From a virus, in IMG/VR virus record IMGVR_UViG_3300017731_002846, positions 32,001 to 96,000 of that record: a DNA stretch of 64,000 bases, one strand, 5' to 3'. Position 1 is the first letter of the stretch; each line of letters starts with the position of its first letter. Below are positions 264-45,990 of the stretch, one piece after another. The position numbers and the translations under genes were made by a program. Under the pieces are notes generated by a model. It searched no databases. It worked only from the letters and a program-made list of their open reading frames with translations, and was not told the DNA's origin.

Positions 264-851
264 TTATCCTCCAAACTTATACCCAAAAATCTCAATATCC
301 TTTGCATATTTTCGCGCGACAATATCACGAGTTTCGTCATCGTAGTATTCAGTGTAATGTTTGTGTTTTGACACATGTTTTTGTGGAAGTTCTTTATGAG
401 GAATTCCAATGTTGTCACAGACGATGTTAAAGTCTTCTTGAAGGTTTTCAAAGCGACCTATGTAATTAATTTTATCTAATGGTTCTAAAATATTATATTG
501 ACTGTAAAGGTGGCACGGATCACCTGGGGACTGGGCCGGGTGTAAAGTTGTGAATTTAATTACAAATGTTTTAAAATCTACACCTCTATAATATTCTCTG
601 CAATGAGGGAGATTCCATTCATTTAATTGATCTGTAAACCATTTAAACTCTGACACCATTTTGTCATATGGATTTCTAACGAAAGAAAATTTATAATAAT
701 TTTTATACTTACTATTCTGTAGTAAATTTCGATGGGTTGCGTGATAATGACCTTCAATATGAAATTCAAAATTTTCCAAATATGCCTCTATGCTTGTGCC
801 AGCGCATTTAGGTACATGTATAAAAACAACTCTATGTTTATTACTTATCAT
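264..851 (-). CDS. Sulfotransferase, Sulfotransfer_2 family
   Basis: VFIHVPKCAGTS (5'-PSB), FSFVRNPYDKMVS (3'-PB), YIGRFENL, D..IFGY. Likely start ATG 851 (MISNKH). Confidence 0.9.
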   Translation of the reverse strand: MISNKHRVVFIHVPKCAGTSIEAYLENFEFHIEGHYHATHRNLLQNSKYKNYYKFSFVRNPYDKMVSEFKWFTDQLNEWNLPHCREYYRGVDFKTFVIKFTTLHPAQSPGDPCHLYSQYNILEPLDKINYIGRFENLQEDFNIVCDNIGIPHKELPQKHVSKHKHYTEYYDDETRDIVARKYAKDIEIFGYKFGG

Positions 852-1623
852 ACAGGTCATTGAAGTAGGCTTGTTCTTTTCTACCATGTGGACCTAATCC
901 ACATTCTATATTTTGCTTGAAATATTTGCAATGATCTATATTAAGAACACTAGTCCACTTTTTTTTAGATAAATCAGCTTTATTATATACATCATGATGC
1001 CCGTGGCAGTGCTCTAAGTGACCGCGCGTTATGATAACTTTCTGCGTAGCGCGCTTCGCTAAACCCTTTGTAATATCAACTGTCTTATTTAACTGCTCAA
1101 AAATATCTACTTGTTTGTTTAAGGTGGCAAGATTTCCATTAGATCCTCCAATTCTATCTCTTAAAACACCTTTACAAAACTGAATTTCGCTGCTCTCTAT
1201 TAATTTTAATTCGGTTGAAGATAGTTCAACAAACTCATCCAGATCAAGTATGAAACACAATTCATTTTCAGTTATATATTGTTTTTTTAAATCGTTCTGT
1301 ATAATCCACAGAGGGCATGTGTTTGGATTAGGAGGAGGGTGCTGATATTCTTTTAACCTTTTGGTATCTTTTAAAGTATTGTGCATGCTCCAGTCACGAT
1401 TTTTGTATTCGTAAAACTTTTCACTACATATAGGGATAAATTTTATATTGTATCTGCTACTGTAGGTTGGTTTGATTGTATTAATTACTTCGTTGTTACC
1501 ATGTAGTATAAATTCTGTAACCCCAATATCATCATAATGCTTTAAGAAATGATGCAGTAAAATATCAGTCACATCAATTTTGATTAATTCTGGATTTGTT
1601 CCTATGTCTGCTATTAATTTCAT
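841..1623 (-). CDS. Glycosyltransferase, GT2/GT92-like
   Basis: FLKHYDDIGVTEF, LDLDEF DXD motif, HGHH. Confidence 0.7.
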   Translation of the reverse strand: MKLIADIGTNPELIKIDVTDILLHHFLKHYDDIGVTEFILHGNNEVINTIKPTYSSRYNIKFIPICSEKFYEYKNRDWSMHNTLKDTKRLKEYQHPPPNPNTCPLWIIQNDLKKQYITENELCFILDLDEFVELSSTELKLIESSEIQFCKGVLRDRIGGSNGNLATLNKQVDIFEQLNKTVDITKGLAKRATQKVIITRGHLEHCHGHHDVYNKADLSKKKWTSVLNIDHCKYFKQNIECGLGPHGRKEQAYFNDLYDK

Positions 1624-3105: not shown

Positions 3106-3753
3106 TCATATAGTATAACCTTTTAACTCTATTACATGCTTTTCTTTTTGCGCTACAAGATCAATTAGTTGTTGATTGTAAATTTCATGCATATTTTGCA
3201 AGTTTAGGCTTTTGTTCCCGTGCTCCAAGGCCGGGGGGGTTATGTCAACTTGATCACATAATAAAGTGAATTCATTCTGAAGATTTTCAAACTCGGCGAT
3301 ATGATTAATTACAGCCTCATTGTTAATAATATAATATTCGTGTTGAGGTTTGTTGTTTTTGATTAAATTTCTCATTATTGTTTTTTTATCTTGATTTTCA
3401 AACATTTTAAGGCACATTTTACCTTGATTTATTTCAGGAGCATTCCATTTTATACTTGCGTCTTTGTTTTTGTATTTTTCCGCATATTCTTTAAAATATT
3501 TGAAGAAACTATAATAACGATCCCACGGATTACGAACAATAGTGAATGAAAAATACTCTGAGAAGTTTTTGTTTAGTTTCTGCAACGAATCACGACATTG
3601 TCTTGCAGTTCCGTGTTGATAAAAATCAGCATTTAAGTTTGGTTCACCAACAATATCAATAACACCCAATGGCAACAAGCTTTCACGAAATGATCTTGTT
3701 CCAGTTTTTGGAATGTCAATTGTTATAAATTTATGTTTATGTGATATTAGCAT
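3106..3753 (-). CDS. Sulfotransferase, Sulfotransfer_2 family
   Basis: IDIPKTGTRS, FTIVRNPWDRYYS, FENL. Confidence 0.9.
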   Translation of the reverse strand: MLISHKHKFITIDIPKTGTRSFRESLLPLGVIDIVGEPNLNADFYQHGTARQCRDSLQKLNKNFSEYFSFTIVRNPWDRYYSFFKYFKEYAEKYKNKDASIKWNAPEINQGKMCLKMFENQDKKTIMRNLIKNNKPQHEYYIINNEAVINHIAEFENLQNEFTLLCDQVDITPPALEHGNKSLNLQNMHEIYNQQLIDLVAQKEKHVIELKGYTI

Positions 3754-5656: not shown

Positions 5657-6160
5657 TTAAACAAGTCTGTCGGTTATAATTTGATGGGCAAATTTTTTAT
5701 CATGCCAATCATGGACTTGAACTTTGTCGCCTGACATAGATAAGTCTTTATAATGGGCAAAGAAATTTTTTGAAATCTGAAGGAAACTCTCTTCTAGGTC
5801 TTTTAAATTAGAATATTTTCTTGTATAAAAGCTTGGGACACCTACCAATTTATAATCTTTTTCTCCCTCGTCATCCATGTCTAATACCCCTAAAATTTTG
5901 GCCTCTACAACAGTAGCTCTTTTGATTGGCTCGGGGCTGATAACTAAAATATCAAGAGGATCTCCATCTTCGCATAAAGTACCAGGAACGAAGCCGTAAC
6001 TTGCTGGGTAAACCATTGCGGAGTTTAGGCACCTATCATACATGAAAACCCCAAGTTCTCCATCGTACTCATACTTATTTTTTGAGCCTTCCTCAATCTC
6101 AATAACAGCATTAACTATTTGGGGCGATTTTTTGTGTGTTGGTAATTTATATAAGTTCAT
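5657..6160 (-). CDS. ppa: Inorganic pyrophosphatase, family I
   Basis: NKYEYD, YPASYGFVPGT, DGDPLDILV, DEGEKDYK. Confidence 0.95.
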   Translation of the reverse strand: MNLYKLPTHKKSPQIVNAVIEIEEGSKNKYEYDGELGVFMYDRCLNSAMVYPASYGFVPGTLCEDGDPLDILVISPEPIKRATVVEAKILGVLDMDDEGEKDYKLVGVPSFYTRKYSNLKDLEESFLQISKNFFAHYKDLSMSGDKVQVHDWHDKKFAHQIITDRLV

Positions 6161-6555
6161 TTTATTCCAGTTAAATCAGATGAAGAGCGAATTTTGTCGC
6201 CAAGCCCGTCAATAACTTGCGTTCCGTTTTCTTTGCAAATTTTGTATTCAGGTATTTCTCCGTTACTACGGTCACCACCATTGGCGAAAATATCGGGTTT
6301 AAGTAAATCAAGGGTCTTGCATACAGTTTTGTCGTCGTCAATAGACATAACAGCTTCATCAACGCCTTTAATTTGAGAGACAATCATTAAACGATCATCT
6401 TCGCACATAAAAGACCTTCCCTTTTTTAGGGCGGCCTGCCTGTCATTATTTACAATAACAATTAAATAATCGCCAAGCTCTCTCGCCATTTTAATATATT
6501 CCAAATGCCCGATATGTATCGGGTCAAAGTACCCACTAATTGCAATTTTTTTCAT
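6157..6555 (-). CDS. Cytidylyltransferase-like protein (TagD/RfaE C-terminal type)
   Basis: SGYFDPIHIGH (HxGH), FANGGDR, KIRSSS. Confidence 0.9.
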   Translation of the reverse strand: MKKIAISGYFDPIHIGHLEYIKMARELGDYLIVIVNNDRQAALKKGRSFMCEDDRLMIVSQIKGVDEAVMSIDDDKTVCKTLDLLKPDIFANGGDRSNGEIPEYKICKENGTQVIDGLGDKIRSSSDLTGIK

Positions 6556-13053: not shown

Positions 13054-13860
13054 ATGACAAAGAGAAAAATTCTTATTATGGGCTTACCAGGATCAGGCAA
13101 AACTACTTTAGCTGAAATCTTAGTAAGAAAATTAAATGCCGCATGGTTTAATGCAGATGCAGTAAGACAAGAGATCCACAAGGACTTAGGTTTCACTGCA
13201 GAAGACAGGCTCGAGCATTCAACTCGCATGGGCAAACTATGTGATTGGGCAAAACTCGGGGGGTCTTATGTAATCGCAGACTTTGTATGCCCAACTAAAG
13301 AAGCAAGGGAAGCTTTTAATCCTGACTTCGTCATCTGGGTAGATAGAATTCAAGAAGGTAGATATGCAGATACAAACAAAATGTTTGAAAAACCAGAAAA
13401 TGCTGACGTTATATTAAAAGAAGGAACTCCTGACGAATGGGCAGAGCAAGCACTCGAAGGTTTATATAAAACAGAAGCATGGGACGATCAAGCCCCAACC
13501 GCATTACTCATAGGCCGGTATCAACCTTTTCATATCGGACACAAAACATTAGTAGCAGAGTCTGTTAAAAGAACAGGTCAATGCTGTATAGCTCTAAGAA
13601 ACGTGGCAGGTATAGATGAGAAAAATCCATACAATTTCGAGCAAGTTAAAAAAGAAATCGAAGCCGCTTGTGTTGAGTTTGGAGATAAAATAAAAATCGT
13701 TGAACTGCCAAACATTACAGATATATTTTATGGACGCGGAGTTGGTTACAATATCGAGCAACTTGAATTAAGCAAAGAACTGCAAGCAGTTTCGGCAACT
13801 AAAATCCGTGCAGGAGAAATCGGACAAGATGGTAAACCATTAGGCAAGAGGCCCGAATAA
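13054..13860 (+). CDS. cysC: Adenylylsulfate kinase fused to an HxGH nucleotidyltransferase domain
   Basis: N-terminal GLPGSGKTT, NADAVR, DLGFTAEDR, DFVCP; C-terminal IGRYQPFHIGH and VSATKIR. Confidence 0.85.
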   Translation: MTKRKILIMGLPGSGKTTLAEILVRKLNAAWFNADAVRQEIHKDLGFTAEDRLEHSTRMGKLCDWAKLGGSYVIADFVCPTKEAREAFNPDFVIWVDRIQEGRYADTNKMFEKPENADVILKEGTPDEWAEQALEGLYKTEAWDDQAPTALLIGRYQPFHIGHKTLVAESVKRTGQCCIALRNVAGIDEKNPYNFEQVKKEIEAACVEFGDKIKIVELPNITDIFYGRGVGYNIEQLELSKELQAVSATKIRAGEIGQDGKPLGKRPE

Positions 13861-14162
13861 TGGCATACGTAGTAACTGAAAAATGCGTGGACTGTAAGTT
13901 TACTAGCTGCGTTTCGGTATGCCCTGTAGATGCTTTTCACGAAACCCCAGATCGTTTATACATCAATCCAGAGTCCTGCATTGACTGCAATGCCTGTATG
14001 GATGAATGCCCTGTCGAAGCCATATACCCAGACATGGATGTGCCTGAGGAATTACAAGATTGGATCGAGCTAAACGAGCAAGCAGAGGAATACCCTCAAT
14101 TGTTTGGGGAGAAAGAGCCTCTCAAGGGCCCTAAATGCGTTGACCCACAAGCGGACGAATAA
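13860..14162 (+). CDS. fdxA: 7Fe ferredoxin (FdxA type)
   Basis: CVDCKFTSCVSVCPVD...CIDCNACMDECP. Confidence 0.92.
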   Translation: MAYVVTEKCVDCKFTSCVSVCPVDAFHETPDRLYINPESCIDCNACMDECPVEAIYPDMDVPEELQDWIELNEQAEEYPQLFGEKEPLKGPKCVDPQADE

Positions 14163-14198: not shown

Positions 14199-14229
14199 AA
14201 AAAGCCCCCTAGCAATAGGGGGCTTTATT
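14199..14229. terminator. Likely bidirectional intrinsic terminator between convergent units
   Basis: aaaaagcccccta-gcaa-tagggggcttt hairpin flanked by A and T runs. Confidence 0.85.
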
Positions 14230-14792: not shown

Positions 14793-15917
14793 CTATTGCC
14801 CCTTAGTAATTTCTTGTTCGCCATCTTGGCTCACAATACTTGTTTGAGATCTAGCGGCTTCATATAATGCATTATAGTTTTTTGTAACCTTCTTGTATCT
14901 CCCGCGAGTGATTTCACGAAGAGATTCTTCAGTGATCCTACTAGGGCCTTCATCCTCAAACAACTTAAGTATTGCAAGATCTTTAAGAGTTACATCAACT
15001 TCCCATTTAATTTGATACCCAAAATCAGGAATAGCCTGAGAGAGTTCGGGGGCAAATGCCCTTGGCTGATCTGCACTTTTAGACTCTGTCCAAGTAAATA
15101 CAGGTACAACCCCATGCCAAGTTTCATGAAAAGCTCCAATATTAATTTTTTGCTCGACTATAGAGCCGTCAATCTTAGATGGATTGAGAGCATCAAATAA
15201 ATTATTATAAGCCAATGGAAAACCAAAGTCATGTTCTTCGTAACAATAAATATGCAAGTATTTAAACAAATTAAATGCTGACCAAGAACCATGATCTGCA
15301 TTTTTTAATACAAGCCTCCTTTGAGCCGAAGGGTCAAGCTCTTTAAAGTTACCATAAAAACGATCAGTAAAATCGCAATAAGCATCGTGATCCTCTTTGC
15401 TAGGTTGGGAATTTAAATGCAAAGATATTGGCGCGGAAATATTTTCTTGAGCGCCTATTTCATCAAGGAACCAGGAATAAAAATTAATCTCTTTGATCGA
15501 TTTTTCAACCACCGAGTCGTCGTCGTCAATTAATTTACAGAATTTATCAGGCTGAATAGACAAAGAAACCCCTTTGGTTACAGCCGTCCTGCCGATCTCT
15601 TTAATTGCATTTAAAAGTTCACCATGTTCTGGCAAATCTGTGATAGATAAATCAGATGAAGGATCAGAAAGAATACCAAATACGGATGTATTTAATCGAT
15701 AATGATCGATTCCACTATCTCGGCAGAAATCAATAATCTTAACAGTAAGATTTAAATTACTTAAAATCTCGTCTTTTAATTTCTTGAGGGCAGCTTGATC
15801 ACCCTGCTGCGAAGACAGCTCGGTGTAAGCTTTGCGGGTCATGCCCACAAAAGTGTTTGCCGGATCCTCTTGCTCGAGGATTTTTGAAGTGCAGACTAGT
15901 CCGTATTTGGTATTCAT
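14793..15917 (-). CDS. UvsE/UVDE-like TIM-barrel protein with degenerate active site
   Basis: YGLVC, N..L...II.F, HYRL, SIQPDKF and LHL follow the UvsE layout; most metal ligands are replaced. Confidence 0.75.
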   Translation of the reverse strand: MNTKYGLVCTSKILEQEDPANTFVGMTRKAYTELSSQQGDQAALKKLKDEILSNLNLTVKIIDFCRDSGIDHYRLNTSVFGILSDPSSDLSITDLPEHGELLNAIKEIGRTAVTKGVSLSIQPDKFCKLIDDDDSVVEKSIKEINFYSWFLDEIGAQENISAPISLHLNSQPSKEDHDAYCDFTDRFYGNFKELDPSAQRRLVLKNADHGSWSAFNLFKYLHIYCYEEHDFGFPLAYNNLFDALNPSKIDGSIVEQKINIGAFHETWHGVVPVFTWTESKSADQPRAFAPELSQAIPDFGYQIKWEVDVTLKDLAILKLFEDEGPSRITEESLREITRGRYKKVTKNYNALYEAARSQTSIVSQDGEQEITKGQ

Positions 15918-31953: not shown

Positions 31954-32736
31954 TTATGAACTTTTATTTTTTTCCAAGTAACTTTCCCAACAAAATTGAT
32001 CACTGCCTAGGTGGTCGAAGTTAGGCTTTTCAATCGAAAGATCTCTACCCGCAAAAGAATTCCTGCCACATATTAGTTTGTAAGTTAAGTAAGCGGAGAA
32101 GTCTTTTTTGTTCTTGTAAAATATTGACTGAGCCTCTTGCATTGCGAAGCCATTAGACTCACAATACTTTACCACTGCATCTTTAGTTATAAAGTCAAAT
32201 GGGAGACCGTTGTCTTCTATAAAAAAAGTAGGCTTTGTGAAAGTAAAATGAGCAAAGCAAGACTGGAATGTTGTTAAGTTTTTAAATATAAACGAATCGT
32301 AAAAAGGAATAGCTAAGGATAGCTGATCTTCTTTCCAAAACTTCTTTAATAAATTAAAGTCTGCCCAACCAAAATACTTTGTTTTACACTCGGTGTAAAT
32401 TTCGTTTAAGAGCTTGCAGCCGCCTGAGTTTTTTGGGAAAATAATAACCTTATGCTTGCATTTAATTAGTTTTGAATCTTCTGCATTAGCGATATCATCA
32501 CAAACGTCAAGCCTTAAACCAAAAATTAATTGCTTGCCAAGGTCATCGCAAACTTTGCGAGCCTGCAGGAAACCCATAAAACTGTCCTCTATAAGAATGA
32601 CTTTATCAAGACAACCTTCTTCTGCTATATCAAAAACAGAATCTGGACTGTTAGCGTTCTCGTCTATCTTAGGGGAATCTAACGTAAGTATAGATTTTCC
32701 TATGGAAAAATGGCTTTTAAATAATGGAAGCGTCAC
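31954..32736 (-). CDS. Stand-alone PHP domain of DNA polymerase III alpha (degenerate)
   Basis: FKSHFSIGKS, ED..MGF, IFGLRL, KN..G...L: homologous to the DnaE N-terminus. Likely GTG start at 32736. Confidence 0.8.
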   Translation of the reverse strand: MTLPLFKSHFSIGKSILTLDSPKIDENANSPDSVFDIAEEGCLDKVILIEDSFMGFLQARKVCDDLGKQLIFGLRLDVCDDIANAEDSKLIKCKHKVIIFPKNSGGCKLLNEIYTECKTKYFGWADFNLLKKFWKEDQLSLAIPFYDSFIFKNLTTFQSCFAHFTFTKPTFFIEDNGLPFDFITKDAVVKYCESNGFAMQEAQSIFYKNKKDFSAYLTYKLICGRNSFAGRDLSIEKPNFDHLGSDQFCWESYLEKNKSS

Positions 32737-45402: not shown

Positions 45403-45990
45403 TTAAAATTTATAATTATATTTTTTAATGTCTTCTTGATATATATTATACACAACCCTCTTGCTATCTTCTATATATAATTGTCTATAATTTAAATTAT
45501 TTGTTGAGTTGACTTTACGAAGATTAGCGTTGGGCAATTTAAGCTTTGCCAAGATGAATGCATAATCTTGTTGAATGTTTTCAAATTTACCAAGAAAGTC
45601 AATGCTTGAGTCGAGGAAATAATTATAGGGTTTGAAGTGAATGCCAGACTCAAAAGAACCTTCTTCTCTTTTCATCAACTTCATAAAATCAGGTATATGA
45701 TTCACAAATTCATTAAAATCCATTTCATTAGCGGCATCCGATATTATACTGTTTCTTTTGTACCAACGATGGCCTTGTTTTAATTTCTGGAAATATTTAT
45801 ATGCAGAAGCTACTCTATCGTATGGGTTTCTTACAAAAGTAAAAGAAAAATAATCTTTATGTTCAGAATGATGGGATGCTGGCGCATGTCCAGAGAAACC
45901 TAATGATTCCAGTTTTAATTGCTGGTTTATTGAGCTGCCAGCACATTTTGGGATGTGCACAAAAATGCACTTCAAAGAATGAGAAATCAC
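45403..45990 (-). CDS. Sulfotransferase, Sulfotransfer_2 family
   Basis: FVHIPKCAGSS, FVRNPYDRVAS, GKFEN. Confidence 0.92.
   Translation of the reverse strand: MISHSLKCIFVHIPKCAGSSINQQLKLESLGFSGHAPASHHSEHKDYFSFTFVRNPYDRVASAYKYFQKLKQGHRWYKRNSIISDAANEMDFNEFVNHIPDFMKLMKREEGSFESGIHFKPYNYFLDSSIDFLGKFENIQQDYAFILAKLKLPNANLRKVNSTNNLNYRQLYIEDSKRVVYNIYQEDIKKYNYKF

Follow-up and report, generated by a model that had tools for sequence, protein, structure and literature searches.

All biological sulfation begins with the activation of sulfate, as does sulfate metabolism of both the assimilatory and the dissimilatory kind, and to our knowledge two types of enzyme perform this activation, Sat and CysDN. 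The metazoan synthases of 3'-phosphoadenosine 5'-phosphosulfate (PAPS), PAPSS1/2 (1x6v, 1xjq), carry in one chain of ~620 residues an N-terminal adenosine 5'-phosphosulfate (APS) kinase and then a C-terminal adenylyltransferase of the HxxH superfamily. That second part is a Sat-type sulfurylase, with a PUA-like domain and the motifs QxRNPxHxxH and GRDHAG. Here we compare with these enzymes a fusion gene at 13054-13860 of a 64,000-nucleotide stretch of viral DNA (the window), which is positions 32,001 to 96,000 of the IMG/VR virus record IMGVR_UViG_3300017731_002846 (105.9 kb, estimated 68% complete; G000 in the coordinates below). The source is a tailed phage with a contractile tail, and its relatives are marine phage genomes of 150–222 kb. 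The 268-residue product has the domain order and the proposed overall reaction of PAPSS, and the kinase domains are neighbours in Foldseek (E ~3e-8). On the other hand, its lid is shortened, and its second domain, of ~120 residues, resembles nicotinamide mononucleotide (NMN) adenylyltransferase (NMNAT) and phosphopantetheine adenylyltransferase (PPAT) and gives no match to the Sat profile PF01747. This domain would be the sulfurylase of a kinase-then-sulfurylase order. We consider it reasonably probable that the protein can make PAPS by itself, as a self-sufficient synthase in which the NMNAT-like domain would act as a new kind of ATP sulfurylase.

The open reading frame (ORF) runs from ATG to TAA exactly where the first-pass annotation, which had proposed a fusion of an APS kinase with an HxGH nucleotidyltransferase, placed it. 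Its 268 residues contain both IGRYQPFHIGH and SATKIR, and the expected Pfam domain is found in each half. It is not a chance ORF: the first similarity search brought up more than 5,700 relatives with E ≤ 1e-3, and the protein matches PHROG 10255 ('kinase') over its full length (E 7.5e-55) and yields an AlphaFold model, built with 52 relatives, of mean pLDDT 93. The gene and its parts are as follows.

13054..13860, plus strand: kinase–nucleotidyltransferase fusion, candidate PAPS synthase, 268 aa (PHROG 10255, AlphaFold)
13054..13473, plus strand: APS-kinase-like P-loop domain, residues 1–140 (PF01583, PDB sequence matches, Foldseek); landmarks P-loop G10–T17, D35, R38, F47, R52, V78-C79-P80 and a shortened lid
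13474..13860, plus strand: minimal HxGH nucleotidyltransferase, ~120 aa, residues 141–268 (NadM sequence match, VIA-align); landmarks GRYQPFHIGH, invariant R182, YGRGVGY and SATKIR

What does the first domain bind? Pfam APS_kinase (PF01583) matches residues 6–87 with E 1.9e-13 and 51.2 bits against a gathering cut-off of 21.1, spanning just positions 5–91 of the 152 in the profile, about half of it; the Pfam and HMMER matches of this half end at about residue 88. Among the NCBIfam models those for APS kinase come top, yet TIGR00455 gives 46.6 bits against a cut-off of 138.7. The best PDB sequence matches are all APS kinases, and the first 42 Foldseek matches of the whole model (E 1.5e-9 to ~2e-7) comprise only APS kinases and PAPS synthases. 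In the alignment of 52 relatives the invariant or nearly invariant residues of this half are G10, G15, K16, T17, D35, R38, F47, R52, P80, R85, D106, T107 and P114; G10, G15 and K16, which are strictly invariant, belong to the Walker A P-loop GLPGSGKT (residues 10–17).

In the APS kinase CysC of M. tuberculosis, Asp480 contacts the 2'-OH of APS, Arg483 and Arg497 hold the phosphosulfate, Phe492 and Phe576 stack on the adenine, and the backbone of Ile523-Ser524 also holds APS (PMC4373884). In the PDB sequence alignments D35, R38, F47, R52 and V78-C79 align with Asp480, Arg483, Phe492, Arg497 and Ile523-Ser524, respectively, and the first four are invariant or at least 90% conserved across the 52 relatives. 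Y103, an aromatic residue followed by a conserved DTN..FE.P, is likely to be the second stacking residue, the counterpart of Phe576, an assignment made by eye. The domain thus has in common with CysC (M. tuberculosis 4bzp/4bzq, P. chrysogenum 1m7g) the fold, the P-loop, the Asp-x-x-Arg, the stacking Phe, the second Arg and the ISP-type strand; it differs in falling far below the TIGR00455 cut-off, in covering half of the Pfam profile and in its much shorter lid. D35, R38, F47, R52 and V78-C79 are all conserved across the fusion family. We conclude that the substrate bound by the kinase half is an adenosine 5'-phospho-anion, which it phosphorylates at the 3'-OH; the obvious candidate is APS. 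That it is a divergent APS kinase we regard as highly probable.

And what might be the acceptor of the second domain? Here the Pfam match is weak (CTP_transf_like, PF01467; residues 152–180, E 4e-5). NadM-type NMNAT models head the NCBIfam list (E 6e-8), scoring 32 bits where the cut-off is 397 and 21 where it is 181, and phmmer finds F. tularensis NadM (2qjt) at E 1.8e-5, in an alignment limited to the first ~85–87 residues of the domain. Given alone to Foldseek, the domain has weak, half-length matches to PPAT and NMNAT (E ~2e-4). In VIA-align PPAT, NadM and the NMNAT of M. jannaschii score highest with Z 10.2, small cytidylyltransferases reach Z 8–8.4 (Z 7.6–8.4 with HldC included), and the ATP sulfurylase of T. 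thermophilus reaches Z 8.3 with 119 residues aligned. For the modelled domain this is a generic HxGH-superfamily picture, which does not reveal the acceptor.

With NadM and archaeal NMNAT (2qjt, 2qjo, 1f9a, 1ej2; GRFQPxHxGH) the domain shares the first beta-alpha-beta-alpha-beta unit, being ~30% identical to F. tularensis NadM along its first ~85 residues (30–31% in Foldseek), as well as the motifs GRxQPxHxGH and SxTxxR and an NP(F/Y)xxxE stretch. Unlike them it has ~120 rather than 165–180 residues, ~45 fewer, without the helices after strands 3 and 4 and without the acceptor-binding helices, and its NCBIfam scores lie far under the cut-offs. The NMNAT 'IGS' motif is replaced by the invariant R182, and after strand 4 there is a new invariant YGR(D/G)VGY around G227-R228 (YGRDVGY in the family consensus, YGRGVGY in this phage). 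In all, the 52 relatives keep invariant, or nearly so, G154, R155, Q157, P158, H160, G162, H163, R182, P219, Y226, G227, R228, V230, G231, Y232, S247 and R252. Since the catalytic HxGH histidines and the SxTxxR arginine are among the invariant residues, the domain is probably catalytically active. R182 and G227-R228 would add positive charge where the acceptor should bind, and the acceptor probably differs from that of NMNAT, being small and anionic.

If this domain makes APS, do the cells that carry it have any other means of doing so? In a complete SAR86 genome the sole APS-kinase match is the kinase of an adjacent kinase and nucleotidyltransferase pair; no Sat, CysD or AprA was found in it, and CoaE and several strong CTP_transf_like matches are present. 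We then took a sample of 61 genomes of the same SAR86 family. The adjacent pair occurs in 55 of them and Sulfotransfer_3 in 59, while Sat occurs in none. The only strong CysD match (E 1.5e-56) lies in G073, one of the six genomes without the pair, where a 649-aa frame ~1.5 kb from it encodes a CysNC-type kinase (region C1:1246644-1249170). As the pair is kept together with sulfotransferases where Sat, CysD and AprA are absent, it appears to replace every known APS route in SAR86, and the distribution is what one would expect of two alternative PAPS routes, the pair and CysD/CysNC. CysD/CysN(C) apparently has the same physiological role, and in this sample it is confined to a genome that lacks the pair; its fold and mechanism are unrelated, CysD being a PP-loop ATPase that the GTPase CysN drives, and no GTPase accompanies the pair. 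A class-level sample of 80 other genomes yielded no copy of the pair, so that it offers no additional independent test of complementarity.

In G073 itself no CysH-type match was found, and the Sulfotransfer_3 matches there come in fragments and contain stop codons. Most of the neighbourhood of the SAR86 pair is uninformative as to function. In one SAR86 genome the immediate upstream neighbour of the pair is a gene for a membrane protein of PF03601 (YeiH/UPF0324); a second SAR86 genome has such a gene at a distance of one gene from the pair. We take this family to be the one that NCBI annotates as a putative sulfate exporter. The two genes are as follows.

L158:7049-7948: PF03601 gene (SAR86 complete genome)
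L154:6049-6954: PF03601 gene

The phage itself is rich in sulfotransferase genes and has others that would serve the making or turnover of PAPS; the following lie in the window and in its parent record.

264..887, minus strand: sulfotransferase PF03567, presumed PAPS consumer
3106..3753, minus strand: sulfotransferase PF03567
3737..4651, minus strand: sulfotransferase PF03567, weaker match
5657..6160, minus strand: inorganic pyrophosphatase, ppa (PF00719, E 4e-47)
45403..45990, minus strand: sulfotransferase PF03567
57844..58548, minus strand: sulfotransferase PF03567 (match at G000:C1:89850-90482)
61218..61904, minus strand: sulfotransferase PF03567 (match at G000:C1:93227-93904)
G000:C1:22823-23503, ~8.5 kb before the start of the window: gene of the CysQ/inositol-monophosphatase family (PF00459, E 1.7e-51)

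The first-pass annotation had pointed to a ppa gene and to many sulfotransferases. The former is a real inorganic pyrophosphatase; as for the latter, the window holds six PF03567 matches above the cut-off and one just below it, and the 105.9-kb record holds 11. The region that carries the fusion gene is a glycan-building island. The product of the CysQ-like gene, which is found also in three of 10 complete marine relatives, all three rich in sulfotransferases, would remove 3'-phosphoadenosine 5'-phosphate (PAP), the inhibitory by-product of sulfotransferases.

Does this association extend to other phages? A sulfotransferase is present in 11 of 13 fusion-carrying virus records that are at least 90% complete and in all 10 complete marine relatives (PF03567 in nine, PF00685/PF13469 in the tenth). 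It is also found in a complete 108-kb phage of a clade just 48% identical and in Stenotrophomonas phage DLP6. The sulfotransferase of the window is matched by just 50 of 50,697 phage records, from about five lineages, three of which (DLP6, phiRSL1 and LR756500) also match the kinase of the fusion. The location of the fusion gene shifts among 45 related marine phage loci. It lies 0.8–2.3 kb from sulfotransferases in nine of them and at most 2 kb from ppa, in varied arrangements, in six. Neither Sat nor CysD was found in the 16 phage records searched.

A separate gene at 6157-6555 on the minus strand, overlapping the start of ppa, encodes a 131-aa cytidylyltransferase-like protein (PF01467, E 5e-17). 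This protein probably belongs to the glycan island and acts on a sugar phosphate or polyol phosphate as a nucleotidyltransferase; its SAR86 homologue is fused to a cupin of the mannose-6-phosphate-isomerase type, ~7 kb from the kinase and nucleotidyltransferase pair. A 210-kb contig (L129) in a metagenome-assembled genome (MAG) of Cellvibrionales encodes a fusion protein 74% identical to that of the window in the same gene order (ppa, cytidylyltransferase, dUTPase, a small ORF, the fusion gene, a UvdE-like gene); it is almost certainly of phage origin and was placed in the bacterial MAG by binning. A 34-kb contig (L086) of a Halobacteriovorax MAG, with a fusion protein also 74% identical and a dUTPase nearby, may be a misbinned phage contig too.

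The family is not specific to phages. Many Alphaproteobacteria, SAR11 and SAR86 carry copies at 40–59% identity, often on megabase contigs. In SAR11 and SAR86 the two halves are often split into two overlapping genes, of ~136 aa and 124–130 aa, which NCBI names 'adenylyl-sulfate kinase' and 'cytidyltransferase'; some JGI names for relatives are 'nicotinamide riboside kinase' and 'phosphopantetheine adenylyltransferase'. Six metagenome proteins (P0121, P0175, P0205, P0192, P0196 and P0216) have the kinase subfamily fused, on either side, to a DUF4118 membrane domain, and P0121 unites DUF4118, kinase and nucleotidyltransferase in one protein; these may be membrane-associated forms or artefacts of gene calling.

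Two bacterial copies lie near sulfation genes. The order in Inquilinus limosus is a two-component system, the fused gene, an arylsulfotransferase-like gene, an unassigned ORF, a Sulfotransfer_3 gene and a sulfatase, and a Rhodospirillaceae genome has a Sulfotransfer_3 gene at a distance of 2.7 kb from the fusion gene. Sulfotransfer_3 is present in 19 of 25 carrier genomes and in two of 14 control genomes. Two other settings are uninformative as to function: the SAR11 neighbourhoods, with genes for the catabolism of dimethylsulfoniopropionate and glycine betaine, and that in Acetobacteraceae, where no PDB sequence relative was found for a downstream 374-aa ORF. A 1.2-Mb SAR11 genome (G024) has AprA (994 bits, C2:36827-38623) and the pair, and no Sat was found in it. 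The SAR11 nucleotidyltransferase could turn APS from sulfite oxidation into sulfate and ATP.

How would the system work? The C-terminal domain would adenylylate sulfate (ATP + sulfate → APS + pyrophosphate (PPi)), a step that we propose from comparative genomics, and the phage pyrophosphatase would remove PPi and so pull this unfavourable reaction. The N-terminal domain would then phosphorylate the 3'-OH of APS to give PAPS, the well-supported step. PAPS would feed the many sulfotransferases of the phage, and the CysQ-like phosphatase encoded elsewhere in the record would clear PAP. Our data suggest that a PAPS synthase is the best-supported hypothesis, and it rests on gene neighbourhoods and on patterns of presence and absence. 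The earlier proposal that a small bifunctional enzyme supplies PAPS to the sulfotransferases is supported by the neighbourhoods in phages and bacteria and by the distribution in SAR86. A literature search returned nothing relevant on a PAPS route in phages, SAR86 or SAR11, nor on a non-canonical ATP sulfurylase.

Several observations weigh against this hypothesis, beginning with the ancestry of the second domain. Its closest relatives are NMNAT and PPAT, not Sat. A Pfam scan at E ≤ 1 gives no match to the Sat profile PF01747, and a comparison by hhalign with the catalytic domains of eight real Sat proteins returns a probability of 3.7%, which is not significant. Those eight sequences show FQTRNPMHR[AS]H, GRDHAG and SGTxxR, whereas the phage domain has GRYQPFHIGH instead of QxRNPxHxxH. 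Sat-type sulfurylases (PF01747; 1v47, 1j70) do belong to the same nucleotidyltransferase superfamily, with its chemistry, a catalytic core that superposes (119 residues, Z 8.3), an S-x-T-x-x-R motif and, following strand 4, a motif of the G-R-D type, to whose GRDHAG form the G227-R228 of the phage family may correspond; what separates them from the domain is QTRNPxHRxH in place of GRxQPxHxGH, the PUA-like N-terminal domain, more than three times the size and the want of significant similarity. The first-pass suggestion of a stripped-down Sat therefore fails on both sequence and fold: we reject Sat ancestry on the Pfam scan and hhalign, and the model is closer to NadM, NMNAT and PPAT (Z 10.2) than to Sat. 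Since the domain is NMNAT/PPAT-like in both respects, its use as a sulfurylase would mean that the HxGH superfamily was recruited to this task independently of Sat.

The kinase, too, is unusual, because the lid between its last strand and its second aromatic residue is much shorter than in CysC, and in the M. tuberculosis enzyme the lid is required for activity (PMC4373884). Nor do all carriers fit. Sulfotransferases co-occur with the gene in phages and bacteria, so the refuting outcome named in the first-pass annotation was not seen, but the co-occurrence is not universal: none of the three families searched was found in the Sanovirus phages (Stenotrophomonas phage Bhz60), in the complete phage record G012 or in the Acetobacteraceae chromosome G025; the same search was negative in three SAR11 single-cell carrier genomes. 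In Bhz60 (L001 5559-6735) the fusion gene overlaps a NADAR-domain gene and has a DNA methyltransferase downstream, an arrangement that PAPS synthesis does not explain. Inquilinus also holds a canonical cysD-cysNC region, so that its fusion gene would be either redundant or dedicated. Two fused SAR11 copies lie inside sugar-nucleotide clusters, one of them beside a GmhA-like SIS gene. Finally, Ralstonia phage phiRSL1 has a kinase of this subfamily, joined to a C-terminal part that is not related to the nucleotidyltransferase, inside a glycosyltransferase/sulfotransferase cluster; as it retains the kinase alone, the nucleotidyltransferase is not always needed.

Could the kinase, then, be the only half concerned with sulfate, converting host APS to PAPS, while the nucleotidyltransferase serves elsewhere, for example in adenylylation of NMN or nicotinic acid mononucleotide or in regulatory nucleotide binding? 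The phiRSL1 gene and the existence of stand-alone kinase and stand-alone nucleotidyltransferase forms agree with this, as does the fact that the best sequence match of the second domain is NadM-type NMNAT (E 6e-8 and 1.8e-5). In SAR86, however, Sat, CysD and AprA are all missing as sources of APS, yet the overlapping, adjacent pair is kept alongside sulfotransferases. The same streamlined genomes hold further strong CTP_transf_like matches in frames of CoaD/NadD size, and the domain is ~45 residues short of an NMNAT and has Arg in place of IGS. We regard this alternative as unlikely, though it is to be taken seriously.

The SAR11 copies in sugar-nucleotide clusters raise another alternative, a kinase–nucleotidyltransferase analogous to HldE (heptose kinase/adenylyltransferase) or NadR that activates a sugar or other small molecule for glycans and has nothing to do with sulfate. 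The genes around them are UDP-glucose dehydrogenase, CMP-sugar cytidylyltransferase, an epimerase, an NTP-transferase, GmhA-like SIS and GT2; the phage gene lies in a glycan-building island, and small cytidylyltransferases and HldC are fold neighbours of the domain (Z 7.6–8.4). But the kinase keeps the residue set with which APS kinases bind APS, not that of sugar kinases; the distribution in SAR86 is complementary to that of CysD/CysNC; and the Inquilinus gene stands with sulfotransferase and sulfatase genes, no sugar-nucleotide gene being identified among the neighbours scanned. Such an activity is decidedly improbable.

The Sanovirus overlap with a NADAR-domain gene, the NadM signature GRxQPxHxGH and the JGI name 'nicotinamide riboside kinase' would be accounted for by a salvage or counter-defence enzyme, a permuted NadR-like nicotinamide riboside kinase plus NMNAT that rebuilds NAD+ during infection. 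NadR has the reverse order, NMNAT then kinase, and its AAA_28-type kinase is matched over the P-loop stretch only (AAA_28 at residues 5–56, E 2e-4; TIGR01526 at residues 4–36), while the kinase as a whole is APS-kinase-like. The NMN-binding part of NMNAT is absent from the second domain, none of the neighbourhoods examined shows a tie to NAD genes, and a near-universal chromosomal pair in SAR86 is a poor fit to phage counter-defence; we give this alternative very little credence. We reject as scarcely credible an alternative PPAT/dephospho-CoA kinase pair for the last two steps of coenzyme A (CoA) synthesis, suggested by PPAT among the top fold matches (Z 10.2), by JGI names such as 'phosphopantetheine adenylyltransferase' and by the shared ability of APS kinase and dephospho-CoA kinase to phosphorylate the 3'-OH of an adenylate, since the pair-carrying SAR86, SAR11 and alphaproteobacterial genomes, streamlined ones among them, all have CoaE and a strong CoaD-sized CTP_transf_like match, which leaves nothing for the pair to replace.

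Two further elements follow the fusion gene in the window.

13860..14162, plus strand: 2[4Fe-4S] ferredoxin, 100 aa (Pfam Fer4 families)
14201..14226, no strand assigned: GC-rich hairpin with an 11-bp stem, terminator-like on both strands, after the two-gene plus-strand unit

The start of the ferredoxin gene overlaps the stop of the fusion gene (TAATG) in a translationally coupled arrangement, and the two genes, the sole plus-strand unit within a minus-strand region, are co-transcribed in this phage. Is the ferredoxin a partner of the enzyme? The overlap is seen here, but no ferredoxin follows the fusion gene in any of the other related phage loci examined, and we rejected it as a functional partner; because of that absence it looks like a recent insertion, peculiar to this phage. 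Adjoining the cassette, at 14793-15917 on the minus strand, is a 374-aa homologue of the UvdE family (UV damage endonuclease) with a long C-terminal extension.

A PAPS synthase of this kind would have the familiar architecture with a sulfurylase module that is not homologous at the family level. In its widest form the proposal, to which we lean only slightly, is that the ~120-residue NMNAT-like domain is a third type of ATP sulfurylase which, with a lid-less APS kinase, forms the sole route of sulfate activation in SAR86 and one route in many SAR11 and Alphaproteobacteria, and which large marine phages carry for glycan sulfation. In SAR11, where the genomes searched have AprAB and no Sat was found, the domain might run in reverse (APS + PPi → ATP + sulfate) and so complete sulfite oxidation. 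If the proposal is true, the genome annotation of the halves ('adenylyl-sulfate kinase', 'cytidyltransferase', 'phosphopantetheine adenylyltransferase') needs correcting, and a single-chain PAPS synthase of 268 residues would be a handy tool for enzymatic sulfation. SAR86 and part of SAR11, which are among the most abundant bacteria of the ocean and are now read as unable to activate sulfate, could then make PAPS and sulfated products, and abundant marine phages would bring with them their own supply of the donor for glycan sulfation.

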